A DNA stretch of 64,000 bases from Fistulifera solaris (taxonomy: Eukaryota), in the NCBI GenBank assembly GCA_030295235.1, contig AP026127.1, positions 992,001 through 1,056,000 of the forward strand, given 5' to 3'. Position numbers and translations under genes: made by a program. Positions within the stretch are counted from its first letter, which is position 1; each line of letters begins with the position of its first letter. The notes under the pieces were generated by a model. That model was given only the letters and a program-made list of their open reading frames with translations. It was not told the origin of the DNA and searched no databases. Below, piece by piece: positions 22,858 through 62,739 of the stretch.

Positions 22858-24453
22858 ATGGTTCTCCTACGATCCCAAGGACGTATTGCCTTCGATCACG
22901 TCCTCGATGTACTTTTGGACTGTGCCAATTCTCCGGGCCTTAAACTGTCCCTTGTTTCTCGTGGCTACACTACGCTTCCCAAACTGCTCTGTATCGACTA
23001 TGCTGTTATCGACTCCCTTACCTACGACGAAAAACCCGACGGTGCCGATGATAGTACTCCAGTCACGGTTCCAGTACCGCAAGCTGATAGGGACATGCTC
23101 AAGATGTTTTTCAAGTACATTGCCGACCGTTATCATCAGGGTAACCCTATCAATGATGATTGGACGTCGATTACTGCTGAAGAGTTCGATTCCTTCTGTG
23201 TACGGGGAGACATTATTGGTTCACGCAGCGGATACTCTCCTGCCCATACACCACGTCCTCCTGTGTATACCGGCAGTACGAAAACCCCTATGTCCCCTGC
23301 AGATGCCTTCCGCCGTGGCATCAAGCGCGATCCTTCACTCTTTCCTACACTCAAGAATGAAAGTTACAATGACTCTTGGCATCGGTCATTCGTGACTCAA
23401 GCTCGCGCCCAAAGTGTCAGTGACGTACTTGATGATCAGTACGTGCCTACTACTGACGATGAGAAGGAACTCTTCGACGAAAAGCAGAAGTACATGTACG
23501 CAGTCCTTGAAGCTACTGTCCTTACTGACCAAGGCAAGGCCATTGTTCGCAAGTACGAGTCTACCTACGATGCACAACGCGTTTATGCTGAGTTGAAGCG
23601 CCATCACCTACAATCTACTAACGCGCAAATGGAATCTTCCAGCATACTCTCGTACATCACTTCGGCCAAACTTGGTGACGGTACATGGAACGGTACTACC
23701 AATGCGTTCATCCTGAACTGGCAAGATCAAGTACGACGCTATGAACAGATTTCCGGCGAAGTCATTTCCGATAAACAGAAACGTGCATTACTTGAAAACG
23801 CGGTTAACGGCATTTCTGATCTACGACAAGTCAAGAGTACCATTGACATTGACACTGCGAAAACGGGAAAAGACGCTACCTTCGAGCAGTACTGTACTCT
23901 TCTCCTCGCCCAAAGTTCCCGTTACGATGCACAGTTTTCTGCGAGACCACGCCGTAAGGTTCTGTACCATGACGTTGTTCAGGATGACCCGTATGACGAT
24001 GACGACGCTGGTTACGAGTACGACATCGATTCTTCTGTGTCTGAGCTGTACATCAACGCTGCTGCCCGTCGTCCTGCACGCAATCGTCCACCCGGTATTT
24101 CTTCGACTCCACGCACTACTGGACCGCGTATGGCTCGTGAACGCTGGATGCAACTGAGCGACAACGCACGTACGATTTGGGACACTATCTCAGATAAGGA
24201 TAAAGCCATTATTTTGGGCCTGTCGTCTAACCCCAACTATACTGGTTCTGGCAGTCATCATGGTCCCCATTCGTCGAGTCGCAGTGTGCACTTCCATGAG
24301 TCTCTTCCTCCCGAGCCCGATCCTGATCCTGACCCTACGGTCCCTAGTGATGAGTTCCACGATGCACCACAAGACATTGATCCTTCCCAAGAAGCCGATT
24401 CGACACTTTTGGTCAATGCTGCACGTTCTGATTCGGCGACTCGATCCCCGTGA
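22858..24453 (+). CDS. gag: Gag of inner copia element
   Basis: FRRGIKRDPSLFPTLK..W..F..QARAQ, LFDEKQKYMYAVL, DAQRVY..L..H: CoDi-type gag motifs. Confidence 0.9.
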   Translation: MVLLRSQGRIAFDHVLDVLLDCANSPGLKLSLVSRGYTTLPKLLCIDYAVIDSLTYDEKPDGADDSTPVTVPVPQADRDMLKMFFKYIADRYHQGNPINDDWTSITAEEFDSFCVRGDIIGSRSGYSPAHTPRPPVYTGSTKTPMSPADAFRRGIKRDPSLFPTLKNESYNDSWHRSFVTQARAQSVSDVLDDQYVPTTDDEKELFDEKQKYMYAVLEATVLTDQGKAIVRKYESTYDAQRVYAELKRHHLQSTNAQMESSSILSYITSAKLGDGTWNGTTNAFILNWQDQVRRYEQISGEVISDKQKRALLENAVNGISDLRQVKSTIDIDTAKTGKDATFEQYCTLLLAQSSRYDAQFSARPRRKVLYHDVVQDDPYDDDDAGYEYDIDSSVSELYINAAARRPARNRPPGISSTPRTTGPRMARERWMQLSDNARTIWDTISDKDKAIILGLSSNPNYTGSGSHHGPHSSSRSVHFHESLPPEPDPDPDPTVPSDEFHDAPQDIDPSQEADSTLLVNAARSDSATRSP

Positions 24454-27400
24454 CATTCGCCGTATCTTGTCACAACCTTCTTCGAATCGTGCCAATCGTA
24501 CACGTAGTGCAAATGTGCACATCATGTACCGTGTCTCGAATGGACATACGGCATCGTCTCTTGCTTCTTTGGTCGACCGTGGTGCTAACGGTGGGGTTGC
24601 TGGTTGTGACGTCAGGGTCATTGACAAGGCTTTTCCGCATCGTCGCGTAGATATCCAAGGCATTGATAACCACCAAATGACTGACCTCGAAATTGGTACT
24701 GTCGGTGGTGTCGTTCATACCCACAAAGGACCGGTCATTGCCATCTTCCATCAGTACGCTCTCTATGGAAAAGGCCCTACGATACACGCTGCTGGACAAA
24801 TCGAACACTACAAGAATTTTGTGGACGATAAGTCTTCAGTCGTGGGTGGTACTCAATGCATTACTACGCTTGATGGTTATGTTATTCCGCTCAACATTCA
24901 GCAAGGTCTGGCACGTCTTCCTATTCGTCCATTTACCGATACTGAATGGGACAGTTTGCCGCATGTCTTTATGACTTGTGACGTTGAGTGGGACCCGACA
25001 GTACTAGATCAAACCATTGACGAGGATGATACAGCCTGGTATGATGCAGTCAGTACAGAAGCCGAGCTCTCGCCGCAACCATCTTTCGATGCCTTTGGTG
25101 ACTATCGTTTCCGCGTCAATGTCCAACATGCGTTTGTCCATGTCCCTTTTGACGATGACATCGACAACGTGATTGACACGTGCATTTACACTGTCCATGA
25201 AGTCGATAGTACTACGGCACGTGCAGGTGACCTAGTTCCTCCTGAGTTACCTCCTGGCGAGCCTCCCCCCATTCTTCCGGTCACTCCACGTACCTTGTCC
25301 AAACGTTCTCCCGACTTCGCGCGTCTACGTCCTTATTTTGGCTGGATTTCCGCCGACTTGGTCCAGTTGACCCTCGAACACACCACGCAATACGCACGTC
25401 TTCCTACGGGTACTCTTTTGAAACGTGCTTTCAAGTCTGCCAATCCGGCACTCAACGTTCGTCGCCGTTCTGAGGCAGTTGCGTGTGACATTGTGTACTC
25501 CGACACTCCTGCTATTGATAATGGTGCAACTTCCGCTGTACTCTTTTGCGGTCGTGATACTTACGTCACCGATATCTACGGTATCAAAACCGATAAGCAA
25601 TTTATCAATACACTCGAGGACAATATACGCGAACGGGGAGCCCCTACACGTTTGATCAGTGACCGCGCCCAAGTCGAAATCAGCAAAGCCGTTGTCAACC
25701 TTCTTCGTACCTTTTGTATTGATTCTTGGCAGCGTGAACCCAAGAACCAGCAACAGAACTTTGCTGAGCGACGTTTCCAGACTGTCAAGACCACTACGAA
25801 CCGCATTCTTGATCGTACTGGCGCTCCGGCTTCGACTTGGCTCCTTTGTCTACAATACGTATGCTTCCTACTCAACCATACGTATAACGAGACACTCAAG
25901 ACCGTTCCGATTCAGGCGCTTACAGGGTCTACTCCTGATGTCAGTGTCCTTCTCCGCTTCTACTTCTGGCAGAAGGTACTCTATATGCGTGACGATTATG
26001 ACTTCCCTTCTGAGTCTCCTGAGGCGATGGGCCATATTGTCGGCATCTCCGAGCACGTTGGACCTGCCCTCTGCTGGAAAATACTTACTTCGGATACTCA
26101 GAAAGTTATTTTCCGTTCTCAGGTCCGTCCGTACACTGACGACGATCCTAATTTGCGCGCCGCTCCGACTGACGGGGAGAGTTCGCATCCGCCCACACCA
26201 GTTGTACAATCGCGTACACCTGTTTTCGAAGTGGATCCTGATGCTACAGACGATATCAGTCCTCCCGACGCTGCAGTCCGTCCGAATGTACCCATTATTG
26301 ACGTTGAAGATCTTATCGGACGTACATTCTTAATGGATGAGGAATCGGATGGTCAGAGGTTCCGCGCACGCATCTCCCATCTTGTTGAAGATCACGAAGC
26401 CGCTGTACGCAATGATCCTACACGAGTCAAATTTGTCTGTGACATTACTGAGAAGGATACGGAAGCCATTTTCACATACAACGAGATCATGGAATATTTG
26501 AACCGTGACTCAGAAGCTCCACTGTGGAAATTCAAACGTATTATTTCTCACCAAGGTCCACTAGGCACTACTGACCGTGAGTACAAAGGATGCAGCTACA
26601 ATGTGCTGGTAGAGTGGGAGAACGGGGAGATTACCGCAGAACCGTTGAATGTTATTGCGGCGGATGACCCAGTAACGTGCGCCATTTATGCCAAGGACAA
26701 CAATTTGTTAGATATGCCTGGATGGAAACGCTTCAAGTCAATTGCAAAGAGGCATAAGAAGTTCGTCCGTATGATCAACCAGTCAAAGCTGCGCTCCTAC
26801 AATTCAGCGCCACGCTATAAGTACGGATTCGAAATTCCTCGCAATTATGCCCATGCAATGCGTCTCGATGAACAGAACAAGAACACTAAGTGGAATGACG
26901 CAGTGGCACTCGAGTTACTTCAGATCGAAGAGTACCACACTTTTAAGGACTTGGGGCATAAGTCGACAGTTAAGCCTCCCCCAGGATACAAGCGAATTCG
27001 CGTTCACTTGGTATTCGATGTCAAGCACGATGGACGGCACAAGGCAAGATTGGTTGCGGATGGTCACCTTACTGAAGTGCCTACCGAGTCCGTATACTCC
27101 GGTGTAGTGAGTCTTCGTGGATTCCGATTGGTCACCTTCCTGGCAGAACTTAACGATTTGAAGTTCTGGGCTACTGATATAGGTAATGCCTACTTAGAAG
27201 CCTATACTTCAGAGCGTGTTTACATTGAAGCCGGGCCGGAATTCGGTAAGCTCGAAGGCCATATACTGTTGATCAGTAAGGCACTTTACGGGCTACGCAC
27301 CAGTAGCTGCAGATGGCATGATAGGATCTCCGATGTACTACGAGAATTGGGTTTCCAGTCCTGCAAGGCTGAACCGGACATATGGTTACGCCCGAGTGGT

Positions 27401-28516
27401 GATGTGTACGAGTATGTCGCTGTGTACGTCGACGATCTTGCACTAGCGATGAAGGACCCTGACGCTTTCGTCAAAATTTTGACGGATAAGTACAATTTCA
27501 AGCTTAAGGGTACTGGTCCTATCACCTTCCATCTGGGAATGGATTTCTCCAGAGATCCTGATGGTACTTTGTGCATGTCCCCAAGAAAGTACATCGAGAA
27601 GATCATAGCCAACTACGAACGGCTATTCGGAGAGTCACCCAAGCAAGTAGTATCTTCTCCGCTTGAGAAGGGTGATCACCCGGAAATGGACACTTCTCCT
27701 TTCCTCGACGAAAAGGGCATAAGAGATTATCAGTCGCTGATTGGAGCTTTACAATGGCTCATCAGTATCGGTCGATTCGACATTATGACCGCTGTCATGT
27801 CTCTCTCTTCTTTTCGCGCAGCACCGAGAAAGGGGCATATGGATCGTGTTAAACGGATCTATGGGTATGTGTCTAAAATGCGTCATGCCTCCATACGCTT
27901 TCGAGTTGAAGAACCAGACTTCTCCGATCTCCCGAATTTTGAGTACGAATGGTCGCGCTCTGTGTACGGTGATGTCAAGGAAGCGGAACCCAAAGATGCG
28001 CCCAAACCTCTTGGGAACTTCGTCACATCAGTACACTTTGTAGATGCGAATCTTATGCACTGCATGGCTACGGGGAGATCTGTGACTGGAATTCTTCACC
28101 TTCTTAACAAGACCCCTATCGAGTGGTACTCCAAGAAGCAGGCAACTGTTGAGACTGCTACTTATGGTTCCGAATTTATTGCAGCGAGAACGTGCGTTGA
28201 GCAGATCATCGATCTCCGCAATACACTGCGATATTTAGGGGTACCGATTCGCGAGAAGGCCTACATGTTTGGGGATAATGAGTCTGTCGTCAACAGTGCT
28301 ACCATGGTACACGCAAAGCTACACAAGAGACATACTATGCTCTCTTTTCACCGTGTACGCGAGGCTATTCGCGTCAGGAATGGTTGCATTCTTGCATATT
28401 CCCGGGAGATGAACCCAGCTGATATTCTCAGCAAACATTGGGGTTATTCGCAGATATGGGATCGTTTGAAGGCGATACTTTTCTGGACTGAAGACACCGC
28501 AGAACTGAAGAACTGA
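24430..28516 (+). CDS. pol: Pol of inner copia element (protease-integrase-RT-RNase H)
   Basis: LVDRGANGG (PR); CDIVY / LISDRA / QNFAERR (IN D,D,E); KARLVADGH, TDIGNAYLEA, VYVDD (RT); FVDAN..GRSVTG, GSEF, FGDN, NPADILSK (RH). Frame differs from gag near 24440. Confidence 0.93.
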
Positions 28517-40473: not shown

Positions 40474-42094
40474 GTACTGAAAAACACTATTGCTATGACG
40501 GATGAAAAATTGGTTCAGTCACATCGGCTTGGTTCCCATCCCGACGTTGTCGGAAGAGGACGCCGATACTGAACGCCGCCGCTCCCAGCTTTGTGCGGGG
40601 CGCGCCACTCTTGTCATCCTTTTTGCCAAGAAGACGTTTAAAAGCAACCTCGAAACCGCTTGTTCACAAGGACGTACGACTTTGTTTATTCAGGTATGGT
40701 TTGGACCAGCTTTTCTTTATTGGTCGACTTTCTAGCGCTTGTAACATCTTAAAACGCTAAGGCACAAACGCATATCGCATATTCAAATTTTGTTCTACAG
40801 TAGGACCTAGCCTTTGTTCACCATTTAAGGTGCGTGACGGCGTTCGTAATTCGTCAGATCATACTACAACTGTTATAGTTCTATCTGATTTCAGGTCCAG
40901 ATAGGGGTTCACATACCGATGTATATGAGAGCAGATTGCAGGTTTAAGAGTTGTCGCGTAAGACAAACTCTTTACTAGAGACCAGAGAGAGGTTAGAGGG
41001 CAAGCGAGAGTGGGTGCAACGAGCGGTACCGTAGTTGGTTCACGGTTTTACCATTCACGGATCAGGTAACAGGGACGACGCGACAAGACGCAGGCAAAAA
41101 AGAAGGTTTTTCAGGCTTCGAAGGTTCGTGTTTCGTGTCCCATCCGTCAAGGGGGAAATCACTGGGGGACTCGCTTTTGCAGTCACGAGAAAAAGGTACA
41201 CTTTTCGATATAGTCCATCCTTGAAGCAAATCGACCGCTTATTGCCCCCAAACGCCTGAGTGCCGCCAAAATCGAACTGTGATTTGTTTGTGTACCACGC
41301 TCGCTGCCACGAGCTCCGATGAAATTTTGAAAAAATTCATTACGACGCATCACGGCATGAATGACAACCTTTGCCATTGAATTTCATTGTATTTCAGGTT
41401 CGTTCATGGGTGACGGAAAACGGATTTCGACTAAAGTTATTATCAAGAGTCATATTCCGAATCGCGTCTACCATGAACGACCCCGCAATAAATTCCTTAT
41501 TGTGAGTGAAAATAACAGGAGTTTTCATGGGATGGGGGCAATAAGCGGTACACGTGACTGGATGAAGCGAGTCCCCCAGTGATTTCCCCTTGCATCCGTG
41601 ATCCCTCATTCAATTCATTACTTACAGTACTCAGTAAGATTTATCAGTTAAGCCCACAAATTACTAGATACTGCCATTCTGCAAAAATCTTAATGTGCAT
41701 TGAAGTATTCGCTTTACGCTTTACCTTTACCCTTTTTTCCTTCCTTTATCGGCTACTGTAATCTGTGATCTGTGCAGTTTCGAACTGTGAACAAAGTACA
41801 GTTCACATTACTCTAATCTCAATCCTTTCTCAGAAACGAGTTAGTTAGTGTACGGAGAAATTAAAGGCCTAACCCGACCCCCCTAAACAACAGTAGACGT
41901 TCTACGTGATGCTGCCTATGTCTTGTACCTTGAACATCCACTGGTATCTTTTTCTCGCTTCAGAGCAATGAGGTTGATCATAAAGATAGCGCCTTTTTCA
42001 TCATTATTTCATTGCCTTTCTCGGGGATACCTTTTACATTCTTTTTGTTTATTTAATTTTATCATTGAAAAGGAAAAAGTCAACTTCTTTGATC

Positions 42095-44950
42095 ATGACA
42101 GCCGGAGACCTTGAGAGCGGCGCAAAAGGCAAGATATTCGATCCAACGGACGCTGACACCGTCCTTGGTAGCCATGGCGTCGTGTACATCGAAACGGAAG
42201 ATACGGCGAATGTTGAGAGTCAGGTCGATGCCTGGATTGAAAACAATACAGTTGTTGTTTTTGGCAAGTCGTGGTGCCCGTTCTGCAAGGACGTCATTGA
42301 GTTTTTGTCGCAGCGTCTCAATGTTGTCACGCACGTCGTCAACATGGATTCGATGGACGGCGGTGCGAAGATTGCTACGTACGTTCAAGAGAAGACGCAG
42401 CACAAGACCGTCCCTGTCGTTTTTATTAATGGAAAATTCAGAGGTGGCTGTGAAGATGTCAAGTCGAAGCAAGAACAGCTCGAAAAGGAATTGCTGATGC
42501 ATCGCAACATGACGCATGAAGAAATCAAGAATTTGGATGCTGCCAAGTTGCCCCTCGAGTACCGATCGACGGCTCGTAATCCTCTCTTTTGGTTTCCCAA
42601 TACGGTCAACAATCGCGTTGTTCGACTCACGGGCTTTCAAGTCTTTGTTTGTGCGGTCCTTTCGGCAGTCTTTCACACGGAGCTGTGGGGTCGCTATCTC
42701 GCCGTCTTTTTGTTGGTGGATTTCGGTCTCCGTATGACCGTCGGAAGCTTTCTTTCACCGCTCGGAATGATTGCTACGGTCGTAGCGAGTCCGTTTGCTC
42801 CCACCTTCCGACCGGGTGCCCCCAAGCAGTTCGCTTCCTTCTGTGGTCTCTTCTTTTCGCTCTTGGCCACCATCTTTTACTTTGCGGAATTCGAGTATCA
42901 CGAAGTCGTCGGTGCTATTTGGATTGCCATGCTCGCGGGTGCGTCCGGTTTGGAAGCCTTCTGTGACTTTTGTCTCGGTTGTGTCTTTTTCGGACTTGGT
43001 ATTCAGTTCAGGCTCCTTCCCGACGACTGTTACCGCATTCATACGCAAACGATTCGGGAAACGCAAGAGTCGTATGACTACAAGATGACCAATCAAGATG
43101 TTCCTGCTCCGGTTGCGATCGATACCAATCCCTCTGATCCGACTGCGCTCAAGTACAAGGTCAAGACCGACGAGTGGACGAAGAACGACTTTGATCCGAT
43201 CAAGCACATGCAAGTCGGCTACTTCGCCATGCCTCTGTCGCTCTCGGGTCTCGCCGTGGCATTCAAGATGGCCTCGATGAAAGGAATGCAAGATTTGGTT
43301 GTACAAGAAGAATACTACTACGTTATCAGCTCGCTCGCCGCTGGTACTATTGCAGTTTTCGTTGGCTTGTACGGTCTGCGCTTGGCCATGTATCCACACA
43401 AGTGTTGGACGGAATGGGTGAGTCCTCTGCATTCCAACAGCTTTGGAGCTATCACGATCACATTGCTGCTCTTTGCTTTCTTGGTACATGATGACTTGGA
43501 TGCAGAAAATAATACAACCGGTCGCGTCTTGTTCTGGTGTGGTGCTATCGGACATACTTTCATCACAGTCGCCAAGACGGGAGAGTGGATTGGTCGACGC
43601 CTAGAGACCGAACACATTCATGCGCATTGGATGATTGTTCCAGTTGGTTTGGCTGTGGCTTCGTTGGTGGCTTCCACTATCGAACCGTTTGCGACGGAGG
43701 AAAATTCCAACTCGAAAGGGAACCTGATGCTGGCTCGGTTTTTCCAGTCGTTTGCCTCGCTCATGTGGATTGCTCTGTTCGCCGTCACCTTCTTCAAAAC
43801 GGTAATTGATCACAATAGCGACAACCGTGTTCGCCATGGCGTTTGGATCTGGTTGGCTGCCCCGTGTATGCTCGGCCTCTCGCAGTACAACATTTGCATT
43901 CAAGAGAATATCGTGAACTCGACATGCGAGGGTGACTTTGCGACGTATTACTTTATCGGCTTATTCTTTCTCATGGGACTTTGCTATGCTGGTCTCTCCG
44001 AGTACGCTTTCTTTGGTCAGGACACCTTTAACTTTGGCTACTGGATCGAGTGCTTTGCCTTGGATGCTTTGGCTGCTTGTGCTTGTTTGTTCTACGCACA
44101 AAATGGCTGGCGTATTAGTCAAAATTTGCAGTGGCTTGCTCTGTGTGCGGCTGCAATCTGTAACTTTTGTGCCCTCTGCCACACCATTGTTGGAATCATC
44201 AACCAGCGCGGTGTATTCACTCCAGAGGTGAAATGGGGACCTCTTTCGTTTATGAAATTGACACATGAAGCTTTTCGGGGAAATATCGAAACGCTGAAGG
44301 ACTATCTCAGGTCTTCCAACCTGGTAACAGAAGAAGGTCGCCACTGCGTCGATATGTTTGCTGTTCATTTCCAGCGATTCCGAATCTTGCATGAAGAACA
44401 CGCCAAGCACGAAGACGAGATTATTTTCAAAACTTTTAATGATTTCTTCCCCGAGCACGCCAAAAAGTGGAACGACGATCACAGCGAAGACCACGCCCAT
44501 TTGGATCGCTGGGTGAACCTAGCTAATAAGCTGCTCGACACCTCGCTCACACTTGCCGAACGTGAAAGTGCGCTTACTCAGTTGCAGCAGCAGATCACTC
44601 CATGGTTTGCTCACTTCGAAGGGCATTTGCGCGGCGAGGAAGATCATTTGAACCCAGTCGGACGCAAATATCTTCCCTTGGCTGTTATGAAAGAAATGTC
44701 GCGCAAGACATGGGAAATCACCCCGGCCGATCGCTGGGAGGTCATCATTCCTTTCATCGTGAACAATTTGCCCCGCCACGAGCAACGCGTTCGCTATTTG
44801 AAGGTTCTGACCTGGAGCTTGCAAGAGCGCGCGCAGCAAATTGGTGCCATTGTGTACCGTCACACTGATGCTGTGATGTGGGAACGTTTGACCCGTGAAG
44901 TCCCGGAGATTATCCCCCGGGGTGTAGCAGGATGGCGCCGTTATTACTAA
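42095..44950 (+). CDS. Glutaredoxin - DUF4395 - SLAC1/TDT anion channel - hemerythrin multidomain membrane protein (951 aa)
   Basis: SWCPFC..TVPVVFING..GGC; VNNRVVR..DFGLR..SP..PKQFA..G..LEAF.DFCLGC; ~10 TM with YFAMPLSLSGL and WIECFAL; THEAFR, HAKHED, DDH, HLRGEE. Confidence 0.9.
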   Translation: MTAGDLESGAKGKIFDPTDADTVLGSHGVVYIETEDTANVESQVDAWIENNTVVVFGKSWCPFCKDVIEFLSQRLNVVTHVVNMDSMDGGAKIATYVQEKTQHKTVPVVFINGKFRGGCEDVKSKQEQLEKELLMHRNMTHEEIKNLDAAKLPLEYRSTARNPLFWFPNTVNNRVVRLTGFQVFVCAVLSAVFHTELWGRYLAVFLLVDFGLRMTVGSFLSPLGMIATVVASPFAPTFRPGAPKQFASFCGLFFSLLATIFYFAEFEYHEVVGAIWIAMLAGASGLEAFCDFCLGCVFFGLGIQFRLLPDDCYRIHTQTIRETQESYDYKMTNQDVPAPVAIDTNPSDPTALKYKVKTDEWTKNDFDPIKHMQVGYFAMPLSLSGLAVAFKMASMKGMQDLVVQEEYYYVISSLAAGTIAVFVGLYGLRLAMYPHKCWTEWVSPLHSNSFGAITITLLLFAFLVHDDLDAENNTTGRVLFWCGAIGHTFITVAKTGEWIGRRLETEHIHAHWMIVPVGLAVASLVASTIEPFATEENSNSKGNLMLARFFQSFASLMWIALFAVTFFKTVIDHNSDNRVRHGVWIWLAAPCMLGLSQYNICIQENIVNSTCEGDFATYYFIGLFFLMGLCYAGLSEYAFFGQDTFNFGYWIECFALDALAACACLFYAQNGWRISQNLQWLALCAAAICNFCALCHTIVGIINQRGVFTPEVKWGPLSFMKLTHEAFRGNIETLKDYLRSSNLVTEEGRHCVDMFAVHFQRFRILHEEHAKHEDEIIFKTFNDFFPEHAKKWNDDHSEDHAHLDRWVNLANKLLDTSLTLAERESALTQLQQQITPWFAHFEGHLRGEEDHLNPVGRKYLPLAVMKEMSRKTWEITPADRWEVIIPFIVNNLPRHEQRVRYLKVLTWSLQERAQQIGAIVYRHTDAVMWERLTREVPEIIPRGVAGWRRYY

Positions 44951-45585
44951 GGCGACATACTTCTAAGTTTTCTTACATAATTGCACATTCAATCTTCCAG
45001 CTGGCGACATCGTACATCATAATTAAATTCTTGTTTGTTTGCTCGCCGACAGCCTTGATTATTTCAAAACGGAAAAACTCGTGTTTGATAGCGACGCCAC
45101 TTAACCACCGCTCATCAACAAGGCCGCATCGACCGCACTCTATGTTTCGTCCATCATCGCCTTGCCCAACATCCATTCTCCATTCGCCAATCCGCCCATC
45201 GTGCCTCGCTTCGTTCCTTCTCCTTCTCCTTCTCCTTCGTCCCTCTCCATTCTCCACCGTTCCAGATTTCTGATTTCTGATGTAAAAAAGTCACTGGGTT
45301 GGATCTGGCACTGAGTTTGTTAAGACCTGCTGGATCGAGACATTTCCAGTGCCTACTAAATGTATGGGAAAAGACACGTAGCGTCTAAAATCCCGGCACG
45401 TCTGCGGAGTAATAATTTTATTGCTCTAGTAAGAATTACTCCGTTAGCCAAGGAAGCCACAACCCAAACGCCGCAGCGGTGAGGCTGGTTAGCATCTCCC
45501 CTCTCATTATTTATTTCCAAAGCTTCGTCCTGAAACAGCGTCGTATGTTCACATCATATTTGCCGGAATAACTTCGTTGCAAGCC

Positions 45586-46266
45586 ATGAAACCTCGAACA
45601 TCAAGTGACTTCAATAATCTTGCTATTGTGCTTTTGCAGAGCAACTGCTTTCGCCCTGCCTTAACAGCTTTCCAAGATGGAGTATTGTTGCAGCAAACGA
45701 AATGTTTGCCTTCGCAACGACGTTATTCTGCGGAAGCCGTGCCTCCACCGATGGCGCGGGCAGTATCCTCTGAAGCCATTGACCTGAATGATATTTGTAG
45801 AATGCCTTGTGCACGATCGTTGCTTGAATTTCTGAAAGTCAAGACGTCCCGGAAAATATTACTTCTTGTTCGACTACCAAAGAAGTCACCATTTGCTAAA
45901 GCAGTCCTATATTACAATCAGGCAATGGCACATCTTGCCGCATCGTGGGCGAATAACAAGGATGATGTTGAACAGTGCAACGCCGAAGCAAAACATTTCC
46001 TTGAACTTTCATCCGTTACTTTACAAAAATGGCACGCAAATCTCACTAAGGTGAATGGTGGGCATTCGAGTCTGATGAGGGCAACTTTGATGCTACTTAT
46101 GTTAGTGACATACACACTTTACCGATCGACGGGCGTCCCGTCACTCAATCGCCGAATTCATGCCATACAAGCTCTTATATCCTCCAACGATTCACAGACC
46201 AGCACTCTGGGTGCTGGAGTAGCGCCGCTCAGTGCCAGTCAATCAAACACAGCCGTAACCGTCTAA
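45586..46266 (+). CDS. TPR-like hypothetical protein, paralog 1
   Basis: SDFNNLAIVLLQSNC...RLP..PF..AVLYYN.AM shared with 46888 and 55245. Confidence 0.7.
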   Translation: MKPRTSSDFNNLAIVLLQSNCFRPALTAFQDGVLLQQTKCLPSQRRYSAEAVPPPMARAVSSEAIDLNDICRMPCARSLLEFLKVKTSRKILLLVRLPKKSPFAKAVLYYNQAMAHLAASWANNKDDVEQCNAEAKHFLELSSVTLQKWHANLTKVNGGHSSLMRATLMLLMLVTYTLYRSTGVPSLNRRIHAIQALISSNDSQTSTLGAGVAPLSASQSNTAVTV

Positions 46267-46887
46267 TTGCTCACTGGTTTCAATGGAGCCATCACAGACG
46301 AACAAAAACTCGACAATTAAATAAATATTCATACAGTTTACTGCATAAAGACTTGAATTAATTCTACATGAGGTCTTTGTCATGCGTAGCGACTCTTTTT
46401 CCTTTCATTTTTCTATCGAAGGGTAACATTTCATCACTTTTCCAGCTTTCGCGAGCGCGGAAACGGAAAAAGTGAAGCGGGGTGGGTCACAACTGACGTC
46501 AGTAAGAAGTCTCGGGAGAGCAAATTCTCACTGGATTACGAGATAATACTTTTTAGTCTATAGTGGAACGTTCGTGGTACTGAAGAGTTTTCTCGTCCTA
46601 TGTTCTCTACCTATTTCTCCGCCCCCTCCGCCGACTACGACAAAAAGACCGCGCTTTGACGCTTGGCCATTGGCTATCATAGTATATGCGATGAAAGCCA
46701 TTCGAAAAGGAAGAAACTATAAAACAAAAATACTCCCACTTAATAACAATAAACATACTACGCCTTGCTTGTCAGAGCAATAGGAAAGACGGCTTCTATT
46801 TCAGAGTCGTGTTGATTTTCGACAAGAACGTACACGGCCAACGACATCTCGGACCTTGTTCGCTTGTATATTCTGACACAAAGAACC

Positions 46888-47598
46888 ATGAAATCGCGAA
46901 GCGATATGAACAACCGAGGAATCGTGTTGTTACAAAGCAATTGCATTGTCGGCGCCTGTCAAGCTTTCGAGGAAGCGGCTAGGAAAACGACAGACGTTCC
47001 TCGCTCTCGAAGGACAACAACCGAGGCATTACCACACCGTTCTGTGAATTCTTCGTCTCATGTTATAGATTTCGATACCTTGGAAAATTGTGCCGACGCG
47101 AAAGCTTTGTTACTGCTGATGCACCAGGCTTCGATTGTTTTAATTCGATTGCCTCGCGAATGTCCGTTTACGGCTGCTGTCGTTCCGTATAACGCAGCCA
47201 TGTCACAATTATCTTTGGCTGCAACTTGTGTTTTGAATACGATCAAGGCGGAAGAATGCCGGGAAGAAGCGAAACGATGGCTTGATCAGTCGCAACAAAA
47301 ACTACAAAAGTGGTGTACTATATTGGCCCGTAAATGCTCCATTCCGCAATCTACTCGTGAGAAGAATATGGAATTATCTGCATTGCTGCGCACAGCCGTT
47401 CTCTTGCAATTGTGGGTTACTGTCACACTCTGTCGTCTGTGCCCGAGTAAGGAGCGACACGAAGAAATTCAACAAATACAACTATTTTTACTGAATCATG
47501 ATCAGAGGCAGCGACTTCAACAAGGCGTGCGGATAGAAGCTTCTCCCATTTCGCCTTCGTCTACAAAGGCGCAAGCGCCCAGCAAAACTACGGCGTGA
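46888..47598 (+). CDS. TPR-like hypothetical protein, paralog 2
   Basis: SDMNNRGIVLLQSNC...IRLPRECPFTAAVVPYNAAM. Confidence 0.7.
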   Translation: MKSRSDMNNRGIVLLQSNCIVGACQAFEEAARKTTDVPRSRRTTTEALPHRSVNSSSHVIDFDTLENCADAKALLLLMHQASIVLIRLPRECPFTAAVVPYNAAMSQLSLAATCVLNTIKAEECREEAKRWLDQSQQKLQKWCTILARKCSIPQSTREKNMELSALLRTAVLLQLWVTVTLCRLCPSKERHEEIQQIQLFLLNHDQRQRLQQGVRIEASPISPSSTKAQAPSKTTA

Positions 47599-50951: not shown

Positions 50952-52480
50952 TTACACATTATGGTGATAAATCATGTTTTCCGTGCTGAATGGAGGCACA
51001 ACCTTGGTCACATGCGCTCCTTCACTAGCCGCCTTCGTTACCAATATCGTGCCTTTGATACCGAACTCTTCGGCCGTTTTCATCATGGCACGAGCGACAG
51101 ACGAATCACTGCGCTCTTTTTCTCGCTGTGCAAAAATATCTCCCGAAGCACCCGACGTAATGGCCATCACGGTAGGACCAGCGCCGCTCAAATAGGCACA
51201 ATGAGCTCCAGCGGCTTCGGCGGCTTCAATCATGGGATATAAGTATTTGTATAGCTTGCCACCTCGTTGCGGCTGATGCAATTTGTCCTGAACGCCCCAT
51301 TTCAGGTTATCCAAGTTGTTGGTACTCAACGCCAAGACCAAAAATGCCGTGCGACTAATGTTGAAGGCCGCATCGCTACGAGTAATGCCGCCCTGCAAGA
51401 CCGCACGCGCGTCACTCGTTTTGCCAATAAAGTCGGGGATGAACATGACCAACTGCAAACCGGGAGGTGCCGGAACGCGTTCTGTGGCCCATCGCGTGCC
51501 GTTATGAATGCCTACCTGGATTCCACCGTAAATCGCAGGTGCGACATTGTCGGGATGGCCCTGTGCAAAAGACGAGAAAGTAGAAGTCGAACGTTTGTGA
51601 GTGCGGGTTGCCCCAAAGTGTCTATCTTCTCCGCAGCACTTCATATCTATACTTACTTCAATACCTGCAGCAATTTGCAACAACGCTTCGGATCCCCAGC
51701 AAGGCAGCCGGTGTCCCGCCAAAATCAATCCGGCAATAATTCCCGCCACAATAGCCGCACTACTCGAACCCAGTCCGCGTGCAAAGGGAATACGACTGAC
51801 AACATGGTAAGATAAGACGGGCATTGGTTTTCGGGCGGCTTCAAATGCTGCTTTGCAGCCCAAAACCAAGTAATTTGATTCGTCCTTGGGCATTTCATTC
51901 GCTCCATCACCCTCTCCGGTAATCTGAAATTTGTCCGAACGACTCACGGTAACCTCCGACCACAAATCTACCGCCATGCCGATAGTATCGTCTGTAAAAA
52001 TAGAATAAGAAAATGAGAAGGAGGCGAAAGCAACGAGCGAAGGGTCATCCCAGCAGAACAAGGATTTGCGAATCTCGATGCGAACCAGTCAACAACCCAG
52101 CGCACACATCAATGAAGCAACTTACATCCCGGTCCCATGTTAGCAGAAGTCGCGGGAACTCGTACTGTAACGCTATCACGGGCCATGGCGTTTTCTTCTT
52201 CGACAACTTGTCGTGCGGCAATTTGACGTCGCATCCGTTCTTCGTGATTGTGCGGGAAAATGAAGGAATTTCGCGATGCGACGGGAGCCTCCTCGTTGTA
52301 AATCACCGTCGGGTGTTCCGTCCGATCCATGGAGACTCGTGGCTGGTATTCTGGCTGAGAGGCCTTCGATCGGGCAGCGTACAGCTGCGATGCGACGACA
52401 CCGGCAACGGCACCCGCGACGGCAGCACTTGCCGCAATGAGAGCGGATTGATTACTACTGTTACTGTTCGGAGGCGACAT
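50952..52480 (-). CDS. thrB: Homoserine kinase (GHMP family); introns 51992-52125 and 51561-51656
   Basis: VRVPATSANMGPG|YD, IPFARGLGSSSAA, E|GHPDNVAPA, DKLHQPQR, LSGAGPT. Confidence 0.95.
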
Positions 52481-60345: not shown

Positions 60346-61572
60346 ATGAAATTTGGAAAGAATCTCCGGGAGAAAACGTTGAAAGAATGGCGCTTCTATG
60401 CTGTCGATTACAAAGCGCTCAAGAAGACGATCAAGAAAGATGACAGCGAGCAATTCTTTCGTCTCCTCCATGAATCCGAAGTCAAGTTATCCAGATTCTA
60501 TCATGATAGAGAATCATGGGCATTTGATTACATGCAGACTCTCCTTGAGCGCGTACAAGCACTTCGCGAGGCTATGGATTCCCAGCAAGACGCGCCCACA
60601 GAGTCCGAGTCTTCTTCCTCCGAGTCGTCCGTGGCGTCTTCGGAAGAAGACAATGCTTCGGTGGCATCCTCCGTCGAAATGGATCGCGGCTTCACCAAGC
60701 TTTGCGTAAAAGCTCAATCGTTTGGTACGAAACAGGCCTGGTTGAAAGAGGAATACCGACGGATGGGAAGCAGCAAACAATTCAAATCATTCATTTACGC
60801 AAAGAAGTCGCTTGCTACTTTTGATCGCGAACTCGGCCTGCTGATTGAATTCCTCGAACTCAACAAAACAGCCTTCAGCAAGATTTTGAAGAAGTTTGAC
60901 AAGTGCACTGGATCAGCAATGCGCGAAGAAAAGATGAAAGGCATTTTGGAAGCAAACGCATTCTTGTCCGGAAAGACTCTATCCGAGTTGAAAGACCGCG
61001 TCGGTCTTTTGATTGACGAAGTGAATAGTTTGAAGCCTCAGCTTCCGGAAGGATGGGAGAATCGAAAAGTATACACCATTGGCTGCTTCGACTTGTTTCA
61101 TCGAGGTCACGAAAATGTATTGCTCTCGCTCCGTGAGTTCGGGTATTATGTGGTCGCTGGAATCCACGACGACGACTCCTACTTCAAACTGAAAAACAAG
61201 GACGCGATTGAGGATCTTGAAACTCGTATCAATAATGTCAAACCATTTGTTGATCAAATTTTTGTTATACCGTCCACGGATCCGCTGATTTATATCAAAG
61301 CCATGGTTAGCGAGCAAGATATTGCCACTGGCTCTTGCTGCTACGCTCGTGGAGACGATATGTTGGACTTCCCTGGTCGCGAATGGGTAGAAACCGTCAT
61401 GCCGGTCCATTTCGTTCCTCGGACGGAAGCCTGCAGCAGCACTTTGATTCGTACTATTTACCACGCCGGAGACGAGGAGTTGCGCAAGAAAGCAGCTTTT
61501 GCAAAAACGCGATACGACGGGAAGCCTATCGATGAAGACGGAAATGTCCTCAACTTGAAAGTTGCGGCGTAG
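60346..61572 (+). CDS. SPX domain - cytidylyltransferase (HxGH nucleotidyltransferase) fusion
   Basis: MKFGKNL...EW..Y..DYKALKK and LNKTAFSKILKKFDK (SPX); GCFDLFHRGH, GIHDD, RGDD, RTEACSSTLIR (CTP_transf_like). Confidence 0.92.
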   Translation: MKFGKNLREKTLKEWRFYAVDYKALKKTIKKDDSEQFFRLLHESEVKLSRFYHDRESWAFDYMQTLLERVQALREAMDSQQDAPTESESSSSESSVASSEEDNASVASSVEMDRGFTKLCVKAQSFGTKQAWLKEEYRRMGSSKQFKSFIYAKKSLATFDRELGLLIEFLELNKTAFSKILKKFDKCTGSAMREEKMKGILEANAFLSGKTLSELKDRVGLLIDEVNSLKPQLPEGWENRKVYTIGCFDLFHRGHENVLLSLREFGYYVVAGIHDDDSYFKLKNKDAIEDLETRINNVKPFVDQIFVIPSTDPLIYIKAMVSEQDIATGSCCYARGDDMLDFPGREWVETVMPVHFVPRTEACSSTLIRTIYHAGDEELRKKAAFAKTRYDGKPIDEDGNVLNLKVAA

Positions 61573-61686: not shown

Positions 61687-62739
61687 TCATCTTAATTCTA
61701 TATCCACAATTTGTTTAGTTGTGCACTTAATATCATCTTGGGTCTCCTTTTCAACACATCCGTGCCCAGGATGACGTCTGGTGATTTGACTTGCTTGTCT
61801 AAAGCAGCCAGTCCAGGAACTTGACCCACATACAGAACCGACTCTCCAAACATAGATACTTCGACTGCGCTTTTTGTCGGGTAAAGCTTGGTCGGTTTGC
61901 CGTCCCCCTCCCATAATTGTCAATACTTGAGAGTCGTTCTGTGAAAACAGTGACGTGAAAGGATTTCTCGACTTGTTAGCCTTGTCGTTTCGGACATCAA
62001 TATTGGCTCTCTTGGCTGCATCTGGATGAATAATCGTAATGGGGGATCCTGTATCGAGCAAGGCTGTGAGCTCGACATTGTTGATAGTGATTTGTATCAA
62101 GGGAAGTTGTGTGATCGGTTGACGTTGTAGGGGAATCATTTGTAGCCCCTCCTTATCTGAAGCGTTTGTTTCACTGAGAAATCGGAATTGTCGATTCTCC
62201 CAATCAAATTCGACGCCACCAGGAAAGCATTGCAAAAAGGCCAAACTGAGTACACCGGCGGCGGCTGGATTTGAAACTGGCAATACCGAAGCCGTCAGAT
62301 CTATCATGAACAAATCAGGCCCCATACCATCAAGCTGTGTATCTCCCAAAAGGAAGGTTTCTCCACCGGGTATGGACCCTGTGGCCGATACACCTGGCAA
62401 GGCAAATTGTCCTGTCGATTTCAATTGCAATTCGGTGACGACTGGTCCTTGAATTGTGTTCGTATTGGCGGCAGTATCTACCACAAAATCCAAACTAACA
62501 CCGGTCTCATTTCGTGAGCGCTGTGATGTTGTACTCAAATTAGGAAACCTTAGAGCAAGGCAAGGATAAGGGCCAATGAATTTCAGAGGAGCGGAAACGG
62601 CCATAATATCATGCTCCATTGAAGGAGGGCCCGAGAAGATTGCCAAGCCTGCCCTATTCAAACGTGTGACGAAAGCAGGTCCGAAAGCGAGAACGGGCGC
62701 TATAAGATATACAATGTTTACGACGTAGAGGATACGCAT
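61687..62739 (-). CDS. Two-lobed retropepsin-like aspartyl protease with plastid-type presequence; frameshift near the 3' end
   Basis: FVVDTAA..GVLSLAFL and ALLDTGS..ILGTDVL (last motif in the shifted frame); signal peptide ending VLA-F. Confidence 0.8.
   Translation of the reverse strand: MRILYVVNIVYLIAPVLAFGPAFVTRLNRAGLAIFSGPPSMEHDIMAVSAPLKFIGPYPCLALRFPNLSTTSQRSRNETGVSLDFVVDTAANTNTIQGPVVTELQLKSTGQFALPGVSATGSIPGGETFLLGDTQLDGMGPDLFMIDLTASVLPVSNPAAAGVLSLAFLQCFPGGVEFDWENRQFRFLSETNASDKEGLQMIPLQRQPITQLPLIQITINNVELTALLDTGSPITIIHPDAAKRANIDVRNDKANKSRNPFTSLFSQNDSQVLTIMGGGRQTDQALPDKKRSRSIYVWRVGSVCGSSSWTGCFRQASQITRRHPGHGCVEKETQDDIKCTTKQIVDIELR

Follow-up and report, generated by a model that had tools for sequence, protein, structure and literature searches.

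A single gene of the diatom Fistulifera solaris, located in the 64,000-nucleotide stretch of DNA analysed here (the window), encodes one protein in which a glutaredoxin (Grx), a DUF4395 membrane module, a SLAC1/TDT channel domain, a hemerythrin-like domain and a conserved C-terminal tail follow each other. The reading that we favour, at a probability of a little under 60%, is that this protein is a SLAC1-type anion channel regulated on its cytosolic side by two of its own domains, a thiol switch coupled to glutathione and a di-iron sensor resembling that of FBXL5. A preliminary description of this DNA had proposed the first four modules, with their order and motifs, and all its coordinates check; the tail, which it had missed, is a fifth conserved module. 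It had also known of no characterised protein with this architecture, and we likewise found no published characterisation in the literature searched.

Gene, transcript and spread of the architecture

The complete ORF (P0001) occupies 42095..44950 of the forward strand, stop codon included, and runs from ATG to stop over 951 codons with no internal stop, giving a protein of 951 amino acids from a single unspliced gene. Since the probability of so long an open frame is about 1e-20, calculated as (61/64)^951, the frame is not a product of chance, and the earlier claim of one uninterrupted ORF is confirmed in the raw DNA. That the gene lacks introns is supported by four sequencing runs of one study, presumed to be RNA (X1-X4), which show no joint in any of the four. 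Contigs from X1-X3 tile the ORF, and contigs from these presumed-RNA runs span the Grx/DUF4395 and the SLAC1/hemerythrin boundaries. The 3' UTR (44951..44999, forward strand) ends at a poly(A) addition site 49 nt past the stop, with 23-24 unmatched A beyond 44999 in X1 and X2, so the check for a single transcript gave jointless, RNA-like cover with a poly(A) end.

The flanks of the gene (40500-41976 and 45142-46618) were covered in X4 and had no cover in X1-X3; missing cover was not counted as evidence. One X2 contig carries 30 unmatched letters upstream of 42130, where a splice acceptor is unlikely because the window reads GG, and not AG, directly before that position.

Some database relatives exist as separate Grx+DUF4395 and SLAC1+hemerythrin proteins, which speaks for a chance ORF or a wrongly joined gene model. 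We give this explanation next to no credence, however: the frame is unbroken in the raw DNA, the contigs cross both boundaries without joints, and the identical module order occurs in 57 of the 203 proteins collected, some of them from transcripts flagged complete. Moreover the apparently split relatives form six pairs on contigs of equal size (27676, 1617356, 15531, 6350, 3367 and 3272), and these equal sizes make each pair look like two gene calls at one locus. For the same reason the Grx+DUF4395 proteins were not taken as evidence for an independent unit, six of them matching the contig sizes of SLAC1+hemerythrin proteins and so pointing to split gene calls.

The architecture search proposed earlier, which returned these 57 proteins with all modules in order, places the full architecture in diatoms, a red alga, an amoebozoan and probably an opisthokont protist; green algae are probably carriers too. 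The non-algal carriers include Mayorella and an entry with the EukProt prefix 'Clim', and the fusion family is restricted neither to diatoms nor to algae. Judged by their sequences, the modules are conserved together well beyond diatoms. Among the 85 long relatives 25 have no Grx, most of these appearing to be N-terminally truncated, and a third search for homologues, using a profile built from distant members, gave only 2 proteins.

The modules and their conservation

Pfam places Glutaredoxin, DUF4395 and SLAC1 above its curated cut-offs and Hemerythrin below, which answers the family-assignment check for three of the four named modules. The glutaredoxin domain (PF00462, 47.9 bits, cut-off 22.9) covers residues 53-115 (42251..42439, forward strand), within a fold extending over about 38-138, and has its active site, C61-P-F-C64, at 42275..42286 of the same strand. 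The motifs reported previously, namely CPFC at 42275, TVP (T105-P107) and GGC (G117-C119), are all present, and the domain combines the features of the class-I (CPYC-type) glutaredoxins: a score above the Pfam cut-off, the thioredoxin fold, CPxC, the cis-Pro TVP and the GG motif. Its closest PDB match by phmmer is PfGrx1 (5.9e-12), its AF2 model superposes on AtGrxC5 (3rhb) with Z 17.9 and rmsd 1.5 over 97 residues at 33% identity, and the Grx domains of thioredoxin-glutathione reductase (TGR), a natural Grx fusion, are among the best matches; the NCBIfam model GRX_euk scores below its cut-off (72.6 vs 87.25). The GSH-site motifs are nearly invariant in the long relatives (P107 in 58/60, G117 in 60/60) and the Pro of CPxC is kept in 42/60. 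A glutathione-dependent oxidoreductase function is predicted for the module.

The preliminary description had called this a dithiol glutaredoxin. The CPFC stands, and C61 is invariant in the 26 close relatives that bear a Grx, but C64 is present in 21 of them and replaced by Ser in three and Thr in two, so the mechanism need not be strictly dithiol. The diatom domain differs from class-I glutaredoxins in being joined to membrane modules and, among its relatives, in frequent replacement of the second Cys by Ser or Thr.

The DUF4395 module (PF14340, 72.7 bits, cut-off 24.5) spans residues 171-301 (42605..42997, forward strand) and contains about four hydrophobic helices, seen both in the AF2 model and in the hydropathy profile. 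All 15 aligned members match PF14340, and the nearest Atlas clusters are bacterial DUF4395. As described before, the module closes with FCLGC (F292-C293-L294-G295-C296); the CxxC (C293-L-G-C296, 42971..42982, forward strand) opens a short hydrophobic helix past the fourth helix, and model and hydropathy put it at the membrane interface. Both cysteines are present in 81 of the 85 long relatives and invariant in eight of eight bacterial DUF4395 proteins. These bacterial proteins (PF14340; 134-182 aa) are 31-36% identical to the diatom module and share its SPLG, PGxPK and C[LIV][GA]C motifs, but they are single-module proteins with a further, C-terminal CxxC (8/8), whereas the fusion has no second CxxC and has the CPxC of an N-terminal Grx instead. 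Fold searches with the joint Grx+DUF4395 model, which bear on a likeness of DUF4395 to, for instance, DsbB/VKOR or DoxX-type thiol membrane proteins, listed only thioredoxin-fold chains, with glutaredoxins filling the lists. Since that model reaches a pTM of 0.83 despite a low-confidence linker, the two modules may pack in a defined arrangement. An assignment of DUF4395 to YgaP-like_TM was discarded, its Pfam E-value of 1.1 in 2 of 15 members being at chance level. Between this module and the first channel helix lies a conserved linker, predicted to be cytosolic (residues 306-368; 43010..43198, forward strand; motif LKYKxKTDEWTKxDFD), in which L352, Y354, K355, K357, D359, D365 and F366 are nearly invariant in the alignment of close relatives.

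The proposed TehA/SLAC1-like pore is borne out by a full-length Pfam match (PF03595, 84.9 bits, cut-off 27.9, profile positions 1-322 of 331) over residues 371-692 (43205..44170, forward strand). In comparisons of the family profile with the PDB (structure matches from 2e-31 to 1e-22) the domain is closest to SLAH1/SLAH3 (2.1e-31), TehA (8.2e-30) and AtSLAC1 (5.3e-25); a crude hydropathy analysis resolves only 7 channel helices. HiTehA F262 and AtSLAC1 F450 are the pore-blocking gate Phe on the ninth helix, according to PMC10645844 and PMC11260165. The motif WIECF (W650-F654) had been assigned to this gate, and F654 (44054..44056, forward strand) does align with residue 262 of H. influenzae TehA in a HMMER alignment, the residue having been counted by hand. 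A Phe occupies the position in 83 of the 85 long relatives, so that the domain resembles SLAC1/SLAH and TehA both in its full length and in its conserved gate. By sequence family the protein is a member of the TDT superfamily and not a TehA orthologue, since the best NCBIfam match, the tdt subfamily (TIGR00816), lies far below its cut-off (75.1 vs 237.25), as does the TehA equivalog NF008032 (31.5 vs 342). For sulfite, suggested previously as the substrate, we found no supporting evidence.

The hemerythrin-like (HHE) four-helix bundle extends over residues ~717-854 (44243..44656, forward strand). The full ligand set claimed for it is present (H724, H769xxxE773, H796 and H844xxxE848), and this set, the family profile and the bundle model support the hemerythrin call; the family assignment is less firm in Pfam, where PF01814 gives no match to the whole protein at E<=1 and stays under its cut-off of 25.3 with the C-terminal 244 aa alone (22.6 bits, E 1.6e-4). 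A precomputed PF01814 match exists for 44 of 57 relatives (counted by hand). A single-sequence search of the PDB with residues 706-951 gave no match at E<=10, while the family profile finds the hemerythrin domain of FBXL5 at 1-2e-5, with HxxxE, H and HxxxE aligned, and more weakly the di-iron proteins ScdA/YtfE (0.003-0.05). In the AF2 model of 706-951 (pLDDT 95.4, pTM 0.91) the bundle helices are 13-35, 41-79, 85-109 and 115-146 in model numbering. Its top Foldseek matches are again FBXL5 Hr (TM by target 0.71-0.76, E 0.11-0.27, none at <=0.001), and in fold comparison hemerythrin-type chains score Z 14.2-11.6 and a de novo four-helix bundle 14.8.

FBXL5, a human iron/oxygen sensor (PDB 3v5x, 3u9j), is thus the closest solved relative by profile and by Foldseek, at 13-17% identity and with the first-helix His outside the aligned stretch. 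Unlike FBXL5, the diatom domain is fused to a channel, has no F-box or LRR and is followed by a conserved 90-residue helical tail (residues 861-951; 44675..44947, forward strand). The six short helices of this tail are modelled with the bundle as one confident unit; R898, W907, G917 and P941-R942-G943 are invariant in the close-relative alignment, and whole-protein and C-terminal 244-aa searches gave no Pfam family for it. The sensor-linked bacterial hemerythrin DcrH-Hr (PDB 2avk) is likewise a C-terminal cytosolic bundle of a membrane signalling protein, though its output is a chemoreceptor and not a channel; its similarity to our model (VIA Z 13.4, rmsd 2.7 over 122 residues) has a Z within the range of unrelated helical bundles.

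The predicted iron ligands are invariant in 31/31 close relatives, and di-iron binding is predicted for the domain. The putative iron site is not universal, since 14 of the 85 long relatives lack the full set (3 of them through alignment gaps); these retain the gate Phe, and 10 of the 14 retain the CxxC. In the conservation check proposed earlier, the CxxC (81/85) and C61 (26/26) are kept almost throughout, C64 (21/26) and the complete ligand set (71/85) less strictly. Conservation in the family is highest at the junction of the last channel helix with the first ligand helix, where P710, K713, P716, S718, L722 and H724 do not vary (31/31 close relatives).

A probable sensor-controlled anion channel

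In plants SLAC1 is controlled by kinases acting on disordered cytosolic regulatory tails. A topology of 4 + 10 helices would leave the Grx, the CxxC end of DUF4395, the linker and the hemerythrin part of the diatom protein all in the cytosol. According to PMC11260165, SLAC1 gating is determined by regulatory domains in the cytosol, at the N and C termini, that act on the transmembrane part. The predicted cytosolic extensions at the two ends of the diatom protein correspond in position to these domains. The two built-in sensors would then take the place of the kinase-targeted tails, the diatom protein differing from SLAC1 in having folded redox and metal domains, an additional four-helix membrane module and no kinase-target tails.

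Under this model the class-I Grx would draw on glutathione and reduce the DUF4395 cysteines at the membrane interface (C293xxC296), or deglutathionylate them, passing the cytosolic GSH/GSSG state to a thiol switch that adjoins the channel. At the other end the FBXL5-like di-iron domain, which begins about 20 residues past the last channel helix, could report the state of iron and/or of O2, NO or peroxide through a change in conformation or stability, and this change would reach the pore-lining helices that carry the gate Phe F654. The redox and iron/oxygen state of the cell would then probably control the anion flow.

Two observations bear on the links within this scheme. Among the 56 members with C61, all three without the CxxC also lack C64, compared with 8 of the 53 with an intact CxxC (Fisher p = 0.006, relatedness ignored; pairwise identity among the three is 22-38%), and this co-loss hints that the Grx and the CxxC are coupled. 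When the hemerythrin part was docked on the channel, the median ipSAE was 0.39 (runs 0.47, 0.39 and 0.00; best control 0.00), with at least 57% of contacts agreeing between runs and a partner pLDDT of at least 75. The mark used for docking is reached by 51/78 solved complexes and 2/108 mismatches; scores of up to 0.60 comprise only 5 of the 78 solved complexes and all 4 passing mismatches of 180, so that the modelled contact is a weak indication, in a score range more often wrong than right unless the contact was likely beforehand. The more specific proposal, in which the hemerythrin gates the channel so that the di-iron centre, together with a glutathione-poised thiol switch, makes the anion flux follow directly the cytosolic status of O2, NO, peroxide or Fe(II), is tentative, and we would sooner doubt it than rely on it.

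Alternative readings and significance

The neighbourhoods of bacterial DUF4395 genes offered a separate view of its function. From 576 confirmed loci we took the best 80, a phylogenetically narrow sample of mostly Actinomycetota, clustered the ORFs within 3 kb by BLAST and, for each of the 93 clusters that recur in three or more loci, scanned a single representative. Most of these clusters have no Pfam match, many probably being shadow frames in high-GC DNA, and none is a rhodanese, thioredoxin, SLAC1 or hemerythrin. The statement that bacterial DUF4395 genes often sit beside rhodanese or thioredoxin genes therefore did not hold in this sample, and recurrent sulfur, selenium or arsenic enzymes were equally missing from it. 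The commonest recurrent neighbour, in 21 of these best 80 loci, has the LMWPc fold.

The LMWPc fold includes thioredoxin-coupled arsenate reductases, and that neighbour could be taken to favour a different function, the second option of the preliminary description (processing of a sulfur oxyanion before export) in a wider form. With the help of glutathione, the Grx and the CxxC would reduce a reactive oxyanion (tellurite, selenite, sulfite or arsenate) or deal with its thiol adducts; transport of the substrate or product would fall to the TDT domain, and the hemerythrin would be an accessory. The membrane-interface position of the CxxC suits this idea, as do the tdt subfamily as best NCBIfam match and a family name that covers tellurite resistance; Ssu1, the sulfite pump of fungi, is likewise a TDT protein. 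We nevertheless regard it as unlikely: the LMWPc neighbour is convergent rather than co-oriented, is missing from 59/80 loci and in NCBIfam scores only weakly, as a phosphotyrosine phosphatase (31.8 bits vs a cut-off of 247), no enzymes of sulfur, selenium or arsenic recur nearby, and the tdt match is itself far under its cut-off (75 vs 237 bits). The near-universal gate Phe (83/85) fits a gated channel instead, and the hemerythrin would be left without a role.

Another use of the same modules follows FBXL5, which works through iron-dependent stability: the hemerythrin domain would fold only with iron bound (and oxidised), iron and oxygen would thereby set the amount of channel protein and not its open probability, and the Grx would do no more than maintain membrane-proximal cysteines in the reduced state. 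The closeness of FBXL5 Hr in profile and Foldseek searches supports this, but no F-box or degron machinery is attached, and the near-invariant junction between channel and ligand helix, together with the weak docking signal, fits direct mechanical coupling better. We think it quite unlikely, and note that a stability switch and gating are compatible, not mutually exclusive. Very unlikely, finally, is a transporter for iron homeostasis that moves a dicarboxylate or iron-chelating organic anion, with the Grx and hemerythrin serving iron sensing or iron-centre repair. TDT denotes tellurite-resistance/dicarboxylate transporters, and the weaker profile matches are the di-iron repair proteins ScdA/YtfE; yet Pro in CPxC, kept in 42/60 relatives, disfavours Fe-S cluster binding by Grx, and the channel profile is equally close to the nitrate/chloride channels SLAH1/3 and to TehA.

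The literature searched describes no SLAC1-type channel that carries a folded sensor of metal or redox state. The sensor-controlled channel is directly testable by electrophysiology and mutagenesis because the protein is compact, intron-free and expressed. If true, it would for the first time place DUF4395 in a functional context, with a glutaredoxin serving its CxxC at the membrane interface. Were the pore under the control of the di-iron and thiol modules, diatoms and numerous other protists would have a direct, protein-intrinsic link from iron, oxygen and redox state to anion fluxes, which bear on nitrate and chloride handling, on osmotic and membrane-potential control, and on the responses of ecologically dominant algae to iron limitation or hypoxia. 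Should the pore be gated by the hemerythrin, the family would provide a self-contained transducer from gas, iron and redox state to membrane potential across unicellular eukaryotes.

The gene, its transcription and its surroundings

The ORF at window 42095-44950 (+) runs from ATG to stop through 951 codons with no interruption, as the preliminary description had it, and by our own arithmetic the chance of a stop-free stretch of this length is about 1e-20. Its product, P0001, whose residue numbering is used throughout, carries the three modules previously proposed from glutaredoxin to channel, each scoring above its curated Pfam cut-off: glutaredoxin (Grx; residues 53-115, 47.9 bits against 22.9), DUF4395 (residues 171-301, 72.7 bits against 24.5) and SLAC1/TDT (Pfam SLAC1, residues 371-692, 84.9 bits against 27.9, covering 322 of 331 profile positions). 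The motifs reported along with them were also placed correctly, namely the Grx active site CPFC (C61-C64, nt 42275), TVP (105-107), GGC (117-119), FCLGC (292-296), WIECF (650-654) and the hemerythrin-like ligand set H724 / H769xxxE773 / H796 / H844xxxE848, all encoded on the + strand.

Contigs from four sequencing runs (X1-X4), all from one study and only by our guess RNA, were placed on window 40500-46800, and none of them contained a joint. Among the contigs listed for X1-X3, the gene is tiled by 42226-42395, 42367-42628 and 42601-43042, by 43148-43719 and 43690-43846, by 44070-44371 and 44342-44516, and by 44669-44999, so listed contigs span both the Grx/DUF4395 and the SLAC1/hemerythrin boundary. 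Depth is above zero in all bins from 41977 to 45141, including the DUF4395/SLAC1 linker (43043-43147), for which the contigs listed include no spanning piece. In X1 and X2, 23-24 A's follow 44999, marking a poly(A) site 49 nt past the stop, and relatives from transcriptome projects flagged 'type:complete' have the same full architecture. The lack of joints and the poly(A) end agree with the intron-free gene proposed earlier and point to one gene with one transcript, although the contigs by themselves are no proof of a single molecule.

In an X2 contig the 30 letters preceding 42130 differ from the window. A splice acceptor is improbable here, since the window has GG, not AG, directly before 42130, and the letters may come from a second gene copy or a chimeric contig. 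Over windows 43930-43981, 44017-44068 and 44517-44668, all four runs, or most of them, included a second contig set with clustered base differences, which made up roughly a third to a half of the depth and is consistent with a second expressed copy about 96% identical, like the closest named relative of P0001, a Fistulifera solaris hypothetical protein (96% identity over 100% of the length).

Just downstream of the channel gene, two adjacent ORFs of 226 and 236 aa (45586-46266 (+) and 46888-47598 (+)), in which no Pfam family was found, have similar N-termini with IVLLQSNC in both and look like tandem paralogues. Further along, a 408-aa ORF at 60346-61572 (+) carries an SPX domain (1.8e-20) and a cytidylyltransferase-like domain (6.6e-11), possibly forming a phosphate-sensing nucleotidyltransferase fusion. 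A copia-type reverse transcriptase (RVT_2, 5.9e-29) is encoded by the 1418-aa ORF at 24260-28516 (+) and a gag-type aspartyl protease by another ORF at 61687-62739 (-); both are retrotransposon remnants. An AFG1-like ATPase (553-2082 (-)), a WD40 protein (14038-15186 (-)) and a GHMP kinase (50952-51977 (-)) are ordinary eukaryotic neighbours whose functions show no evident connection with the channel.

Distribution of the family and conservation of its functional residues

Of 1.84 billion cluster representatives scanned exhaustively with HMMER, 2102 matched at E<=1e-3, with 408 of these reaching <=1e-10 and 189 reaching <=1e-30. When HMMs made from segments of the family alignment were run on 203 collected proteins, Grx, DUF4395, SLAC1, hemerythrin and C-tail were found in this order in 57 of them (45 with a detectable linker, 12 without), the remainder being mostly fragments; the proposed four-module fusion therefore recurs, and beyond diatoms. 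Members include several diatoms, the red alga Porphyridium purpureum (annotated 'S-type anion channel SLAH3'), the amoebozoan Mayorella and a EukProt entry with the prefix 'Clim', which we take to be the opisthokont Corallochytrium limacisporum. The nearest Atlas cluster (lead-level score 0.79) has 59 eukaryotic members, with SLAC1 in 100%, DUF4395 in 90% and hemerythrin in 59%, and Chlorophyta as its commonest phylum. Given this spread of members, the fusion is an old eukaryotic family, neither a diatom invention nor tied to photosynthesis. Full-text literature searches found no paper on the architecture or on DUF4395 function, and the members' database labels are only hypothetical, 'TehA-like permease/glutaredoxin' or 'SLAH3', in line with the initial remark that no such protein had been characterised.

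Conservation was read from 85 aligned relatives of at least 700 aa with DUF4395, SLAC1 and hemerythrin segments, other collected proteins being excluded as fragments. The gate Phe, F654, is kept in 83 and both Cys of the DUF4395 CxxC in 81, while the full iron-ligand set is present in 71, with 3 of the 14 exceptions due to gaps; the Cys and His conservation on which the original proposal depended holds for most of these relatives but not for all. A Grx segment was detected in 60 of the 85; of these, 54 have Cys at position 61 (the others being 5 gaps and 1 Arg) and 44 have both C61 and C64. Of the 25 'Grx-less' entries, most begin no more than 70 residues from DUF4395, and their gene models may be truncated. 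Among 26 close relatives, 5 have Ser or Thr in place of C64, so that a monothiol mechanism of the glutathionylation type would suffice, and the description as a dithiol glutaredoxin fits the CPFC of P0001 but not these relatives.

Of the 56 members that have C61, three (P0031, P0060 and P0196, 22-38% identical to one another) have lost the CxxC. All three also lack C64, against 8 of the 53 in which C61 and the CxxC are intact (Fisher p = 0.006, uncorrected for relatedness). The pattern offers no more than a hint that the Grx dithiol may act together with the CxxC of DUF4395. In P0060, P0196, P0098, P0120, P0138 and others the iron ligands are degenerate and the gate Phe is kept, some also lacking the CxxC; this minority may be 'sensor-dead' paralogues, which would serve as natural controls.

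The channel and its putative sensor modules

Against the PDB, the family profile matched SLAH1/SLAH3 (2.1e-31), H. influenzae TehA (8.2e-30) and AtSLAC1 (5.3e-25), so that by profile the channel domain appears about equally near to all three. It scored 75 on NCBIfam tdt, whose cut-off is 237, indicating a TDT-superfamily member and not a TehA orthologue. By our own count F654 lies opposite TehA residue 262 in the alignment, which together with its conservation upholds the placing of the WIECF Phe at the gate; two papers describe F262/F450 as the pore-blocking gate residue (PMC10645844, PMC11260165).

Bacterial DUF4395 homologues (134-182 aa, 31-36% identity) share the SPLG, PGxPK and C[LIV][GA]C motifs with the fusion. 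Their short C-terminal tail holds another CxxC, and all four Cys are invariant in 8 of 8, whereas the eukaryotic fusion lacks this second pair and has the N-terminal Grx CPxC instead, from which we infer that Grx takes its place as redox partner. In an AF2 model of residues 36-335 (pLDDT 90.7, pTM 0.83), the CxxC begins a short hydrophobic helix directly behind the fourth long helix and is predicted to lie at the membrane interface; the high pTM in spite of a low-confidence linker suggests that Grx and DUF4395 pack in a defined way. Structure searches with this Grx-DUF4395 model listed thioredoxin-fold chains only. Bacterial DUF4395 genes had been said to sit beside rhodanese or thioredoxin genes, and this was not borne out in the sample taken: in the best 80 of 576 confirmed loci, mostly from Actinomycetota MAGs, no rhodanese, thioredoxin, SLAC1 or hemerythrin neighbour recurs. 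An LMWPc-fold protein recurs most often (21 of the 80), its gene convergent and just downstream; TetR, ABC, MFS and others are rarer.

The hemerythrin module is the least straightforward of the four. PF01814 gave no match with the whole of P0001 and, on the C-terminal 244 residues alone, 22.6 bits (E 1.6e-4), below the cut-off of 25.3; precomputed matches exist for 44 of 57 relatives by our count. Family profiles found the human FBXL5 hemerythrin domain best in the PDB (E 1-2e-5), followed by the di-iron proteins ScdA/YtfE and NMB1532 (E 0.003-0.05), with the family HxxxE, H and HxxxE falling on the matching FBXL5 motifs, and all 31 close relatives compared keep the six ligand positions unchanged. 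The AlphaFold2 model of residues 706-951 (pLDDT 95.4, pTM 0.91) shows a four-helix bundle with six short helices behind it, for which Foldseek ranked FBXL5 hemerythrin chains best (TM by target 0.71-0.76), yet at E 0.11-0.27. Fold alone cannot tell hemerythrin-type chains (3cax Z 14.2, 2avk 13.4, 2p0n 13.4, 3v5x 12.3, 6q09 11.6) from unrelated or designed bundles, the designed 8tn1 scoring higher than any of them (14.8), and a single-sequence PDB search with residues 706-951 found nothing. With the four lines of support (relatives' PF01814 matches, profiles, model and ligand conservation) set against this ambiguity and the empty search, we label the module first described as hemerythrin-like (HHE), closest to FBXL5 as judged from profiles and model, with iron binding putative.

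A proposed sensor-regulated channel and its alternatives

The modules, their order and co-conservation, and expression (if our guess that the runs are RNA holds) are observed directly, and the fusion and its conservation are solid; how the channel is gated is what we infer. The protein would be a SLAC1-type anion channel with the sensors as its regulatory domains. If Grx is cytosolic and depends on glutathione, a layout of 4 + 10 membrane helices would place the CxxC and every soluble part on the cytosolic side, in agreement with the known cytosolic termini of SLAC1, whose N- and C-terminal cytosolic regulatory domains act on the transmembrane part according to PMC10645844 and PMC11260165. The glutathione redox state would be read by a Grx-served thiol switch on DUF4395, and iron and/or O2, NO or peroxide by the FBXL5-like di-iron domain.

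About 20 residues separate the last channel helix from the start of the di-iron domain, and since this junction is the most conserved stretch of the family (P710, K713, P716, S718, L722 and H724 invariant), the putative di-iron domain could plausibly be coupled to the pore helices. Predicted together as two chains, without use of our family alignments, the channel (365-705) and residues 706-951 gave a median ipSAE of 0.39 (runs 0.47, 0.39, 0.00) against 0.00 for the best control, with at least 57% of contacts agreeing between runs and partner pLDDT of at least 75. Of 78 solved complexes, 51 passed the mark, as did 2 of 108 mismatches; passes with 0.60 or less came from 5 of those 78 and from all 4 mismatches that passed, of 180. 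The prediction lends weak support to docking of the hemerythrin-tail part on the channel.

A coupled oxyanion reductase/exporter is an unlikely alternative, though the strongest of those weighed; nothing supports sulfite specifically, the substrate that the preliminary description had suggested. Slightly less probable is that the C-terminal domain acts as an FBXL5-style iron-dependent stability switch instead of in gating, a role compatible with the sensor-regulated channel, and an organic-anion transporter for iron homeostasis is more doubtful still. That the fusion is an artefact is barely credible, being contradicted by the DNA, the contigs and the conservation. The protein belongs to a known kind of channel, and within the literature searched its putative sensor modules are new for the SLAC1-type family.
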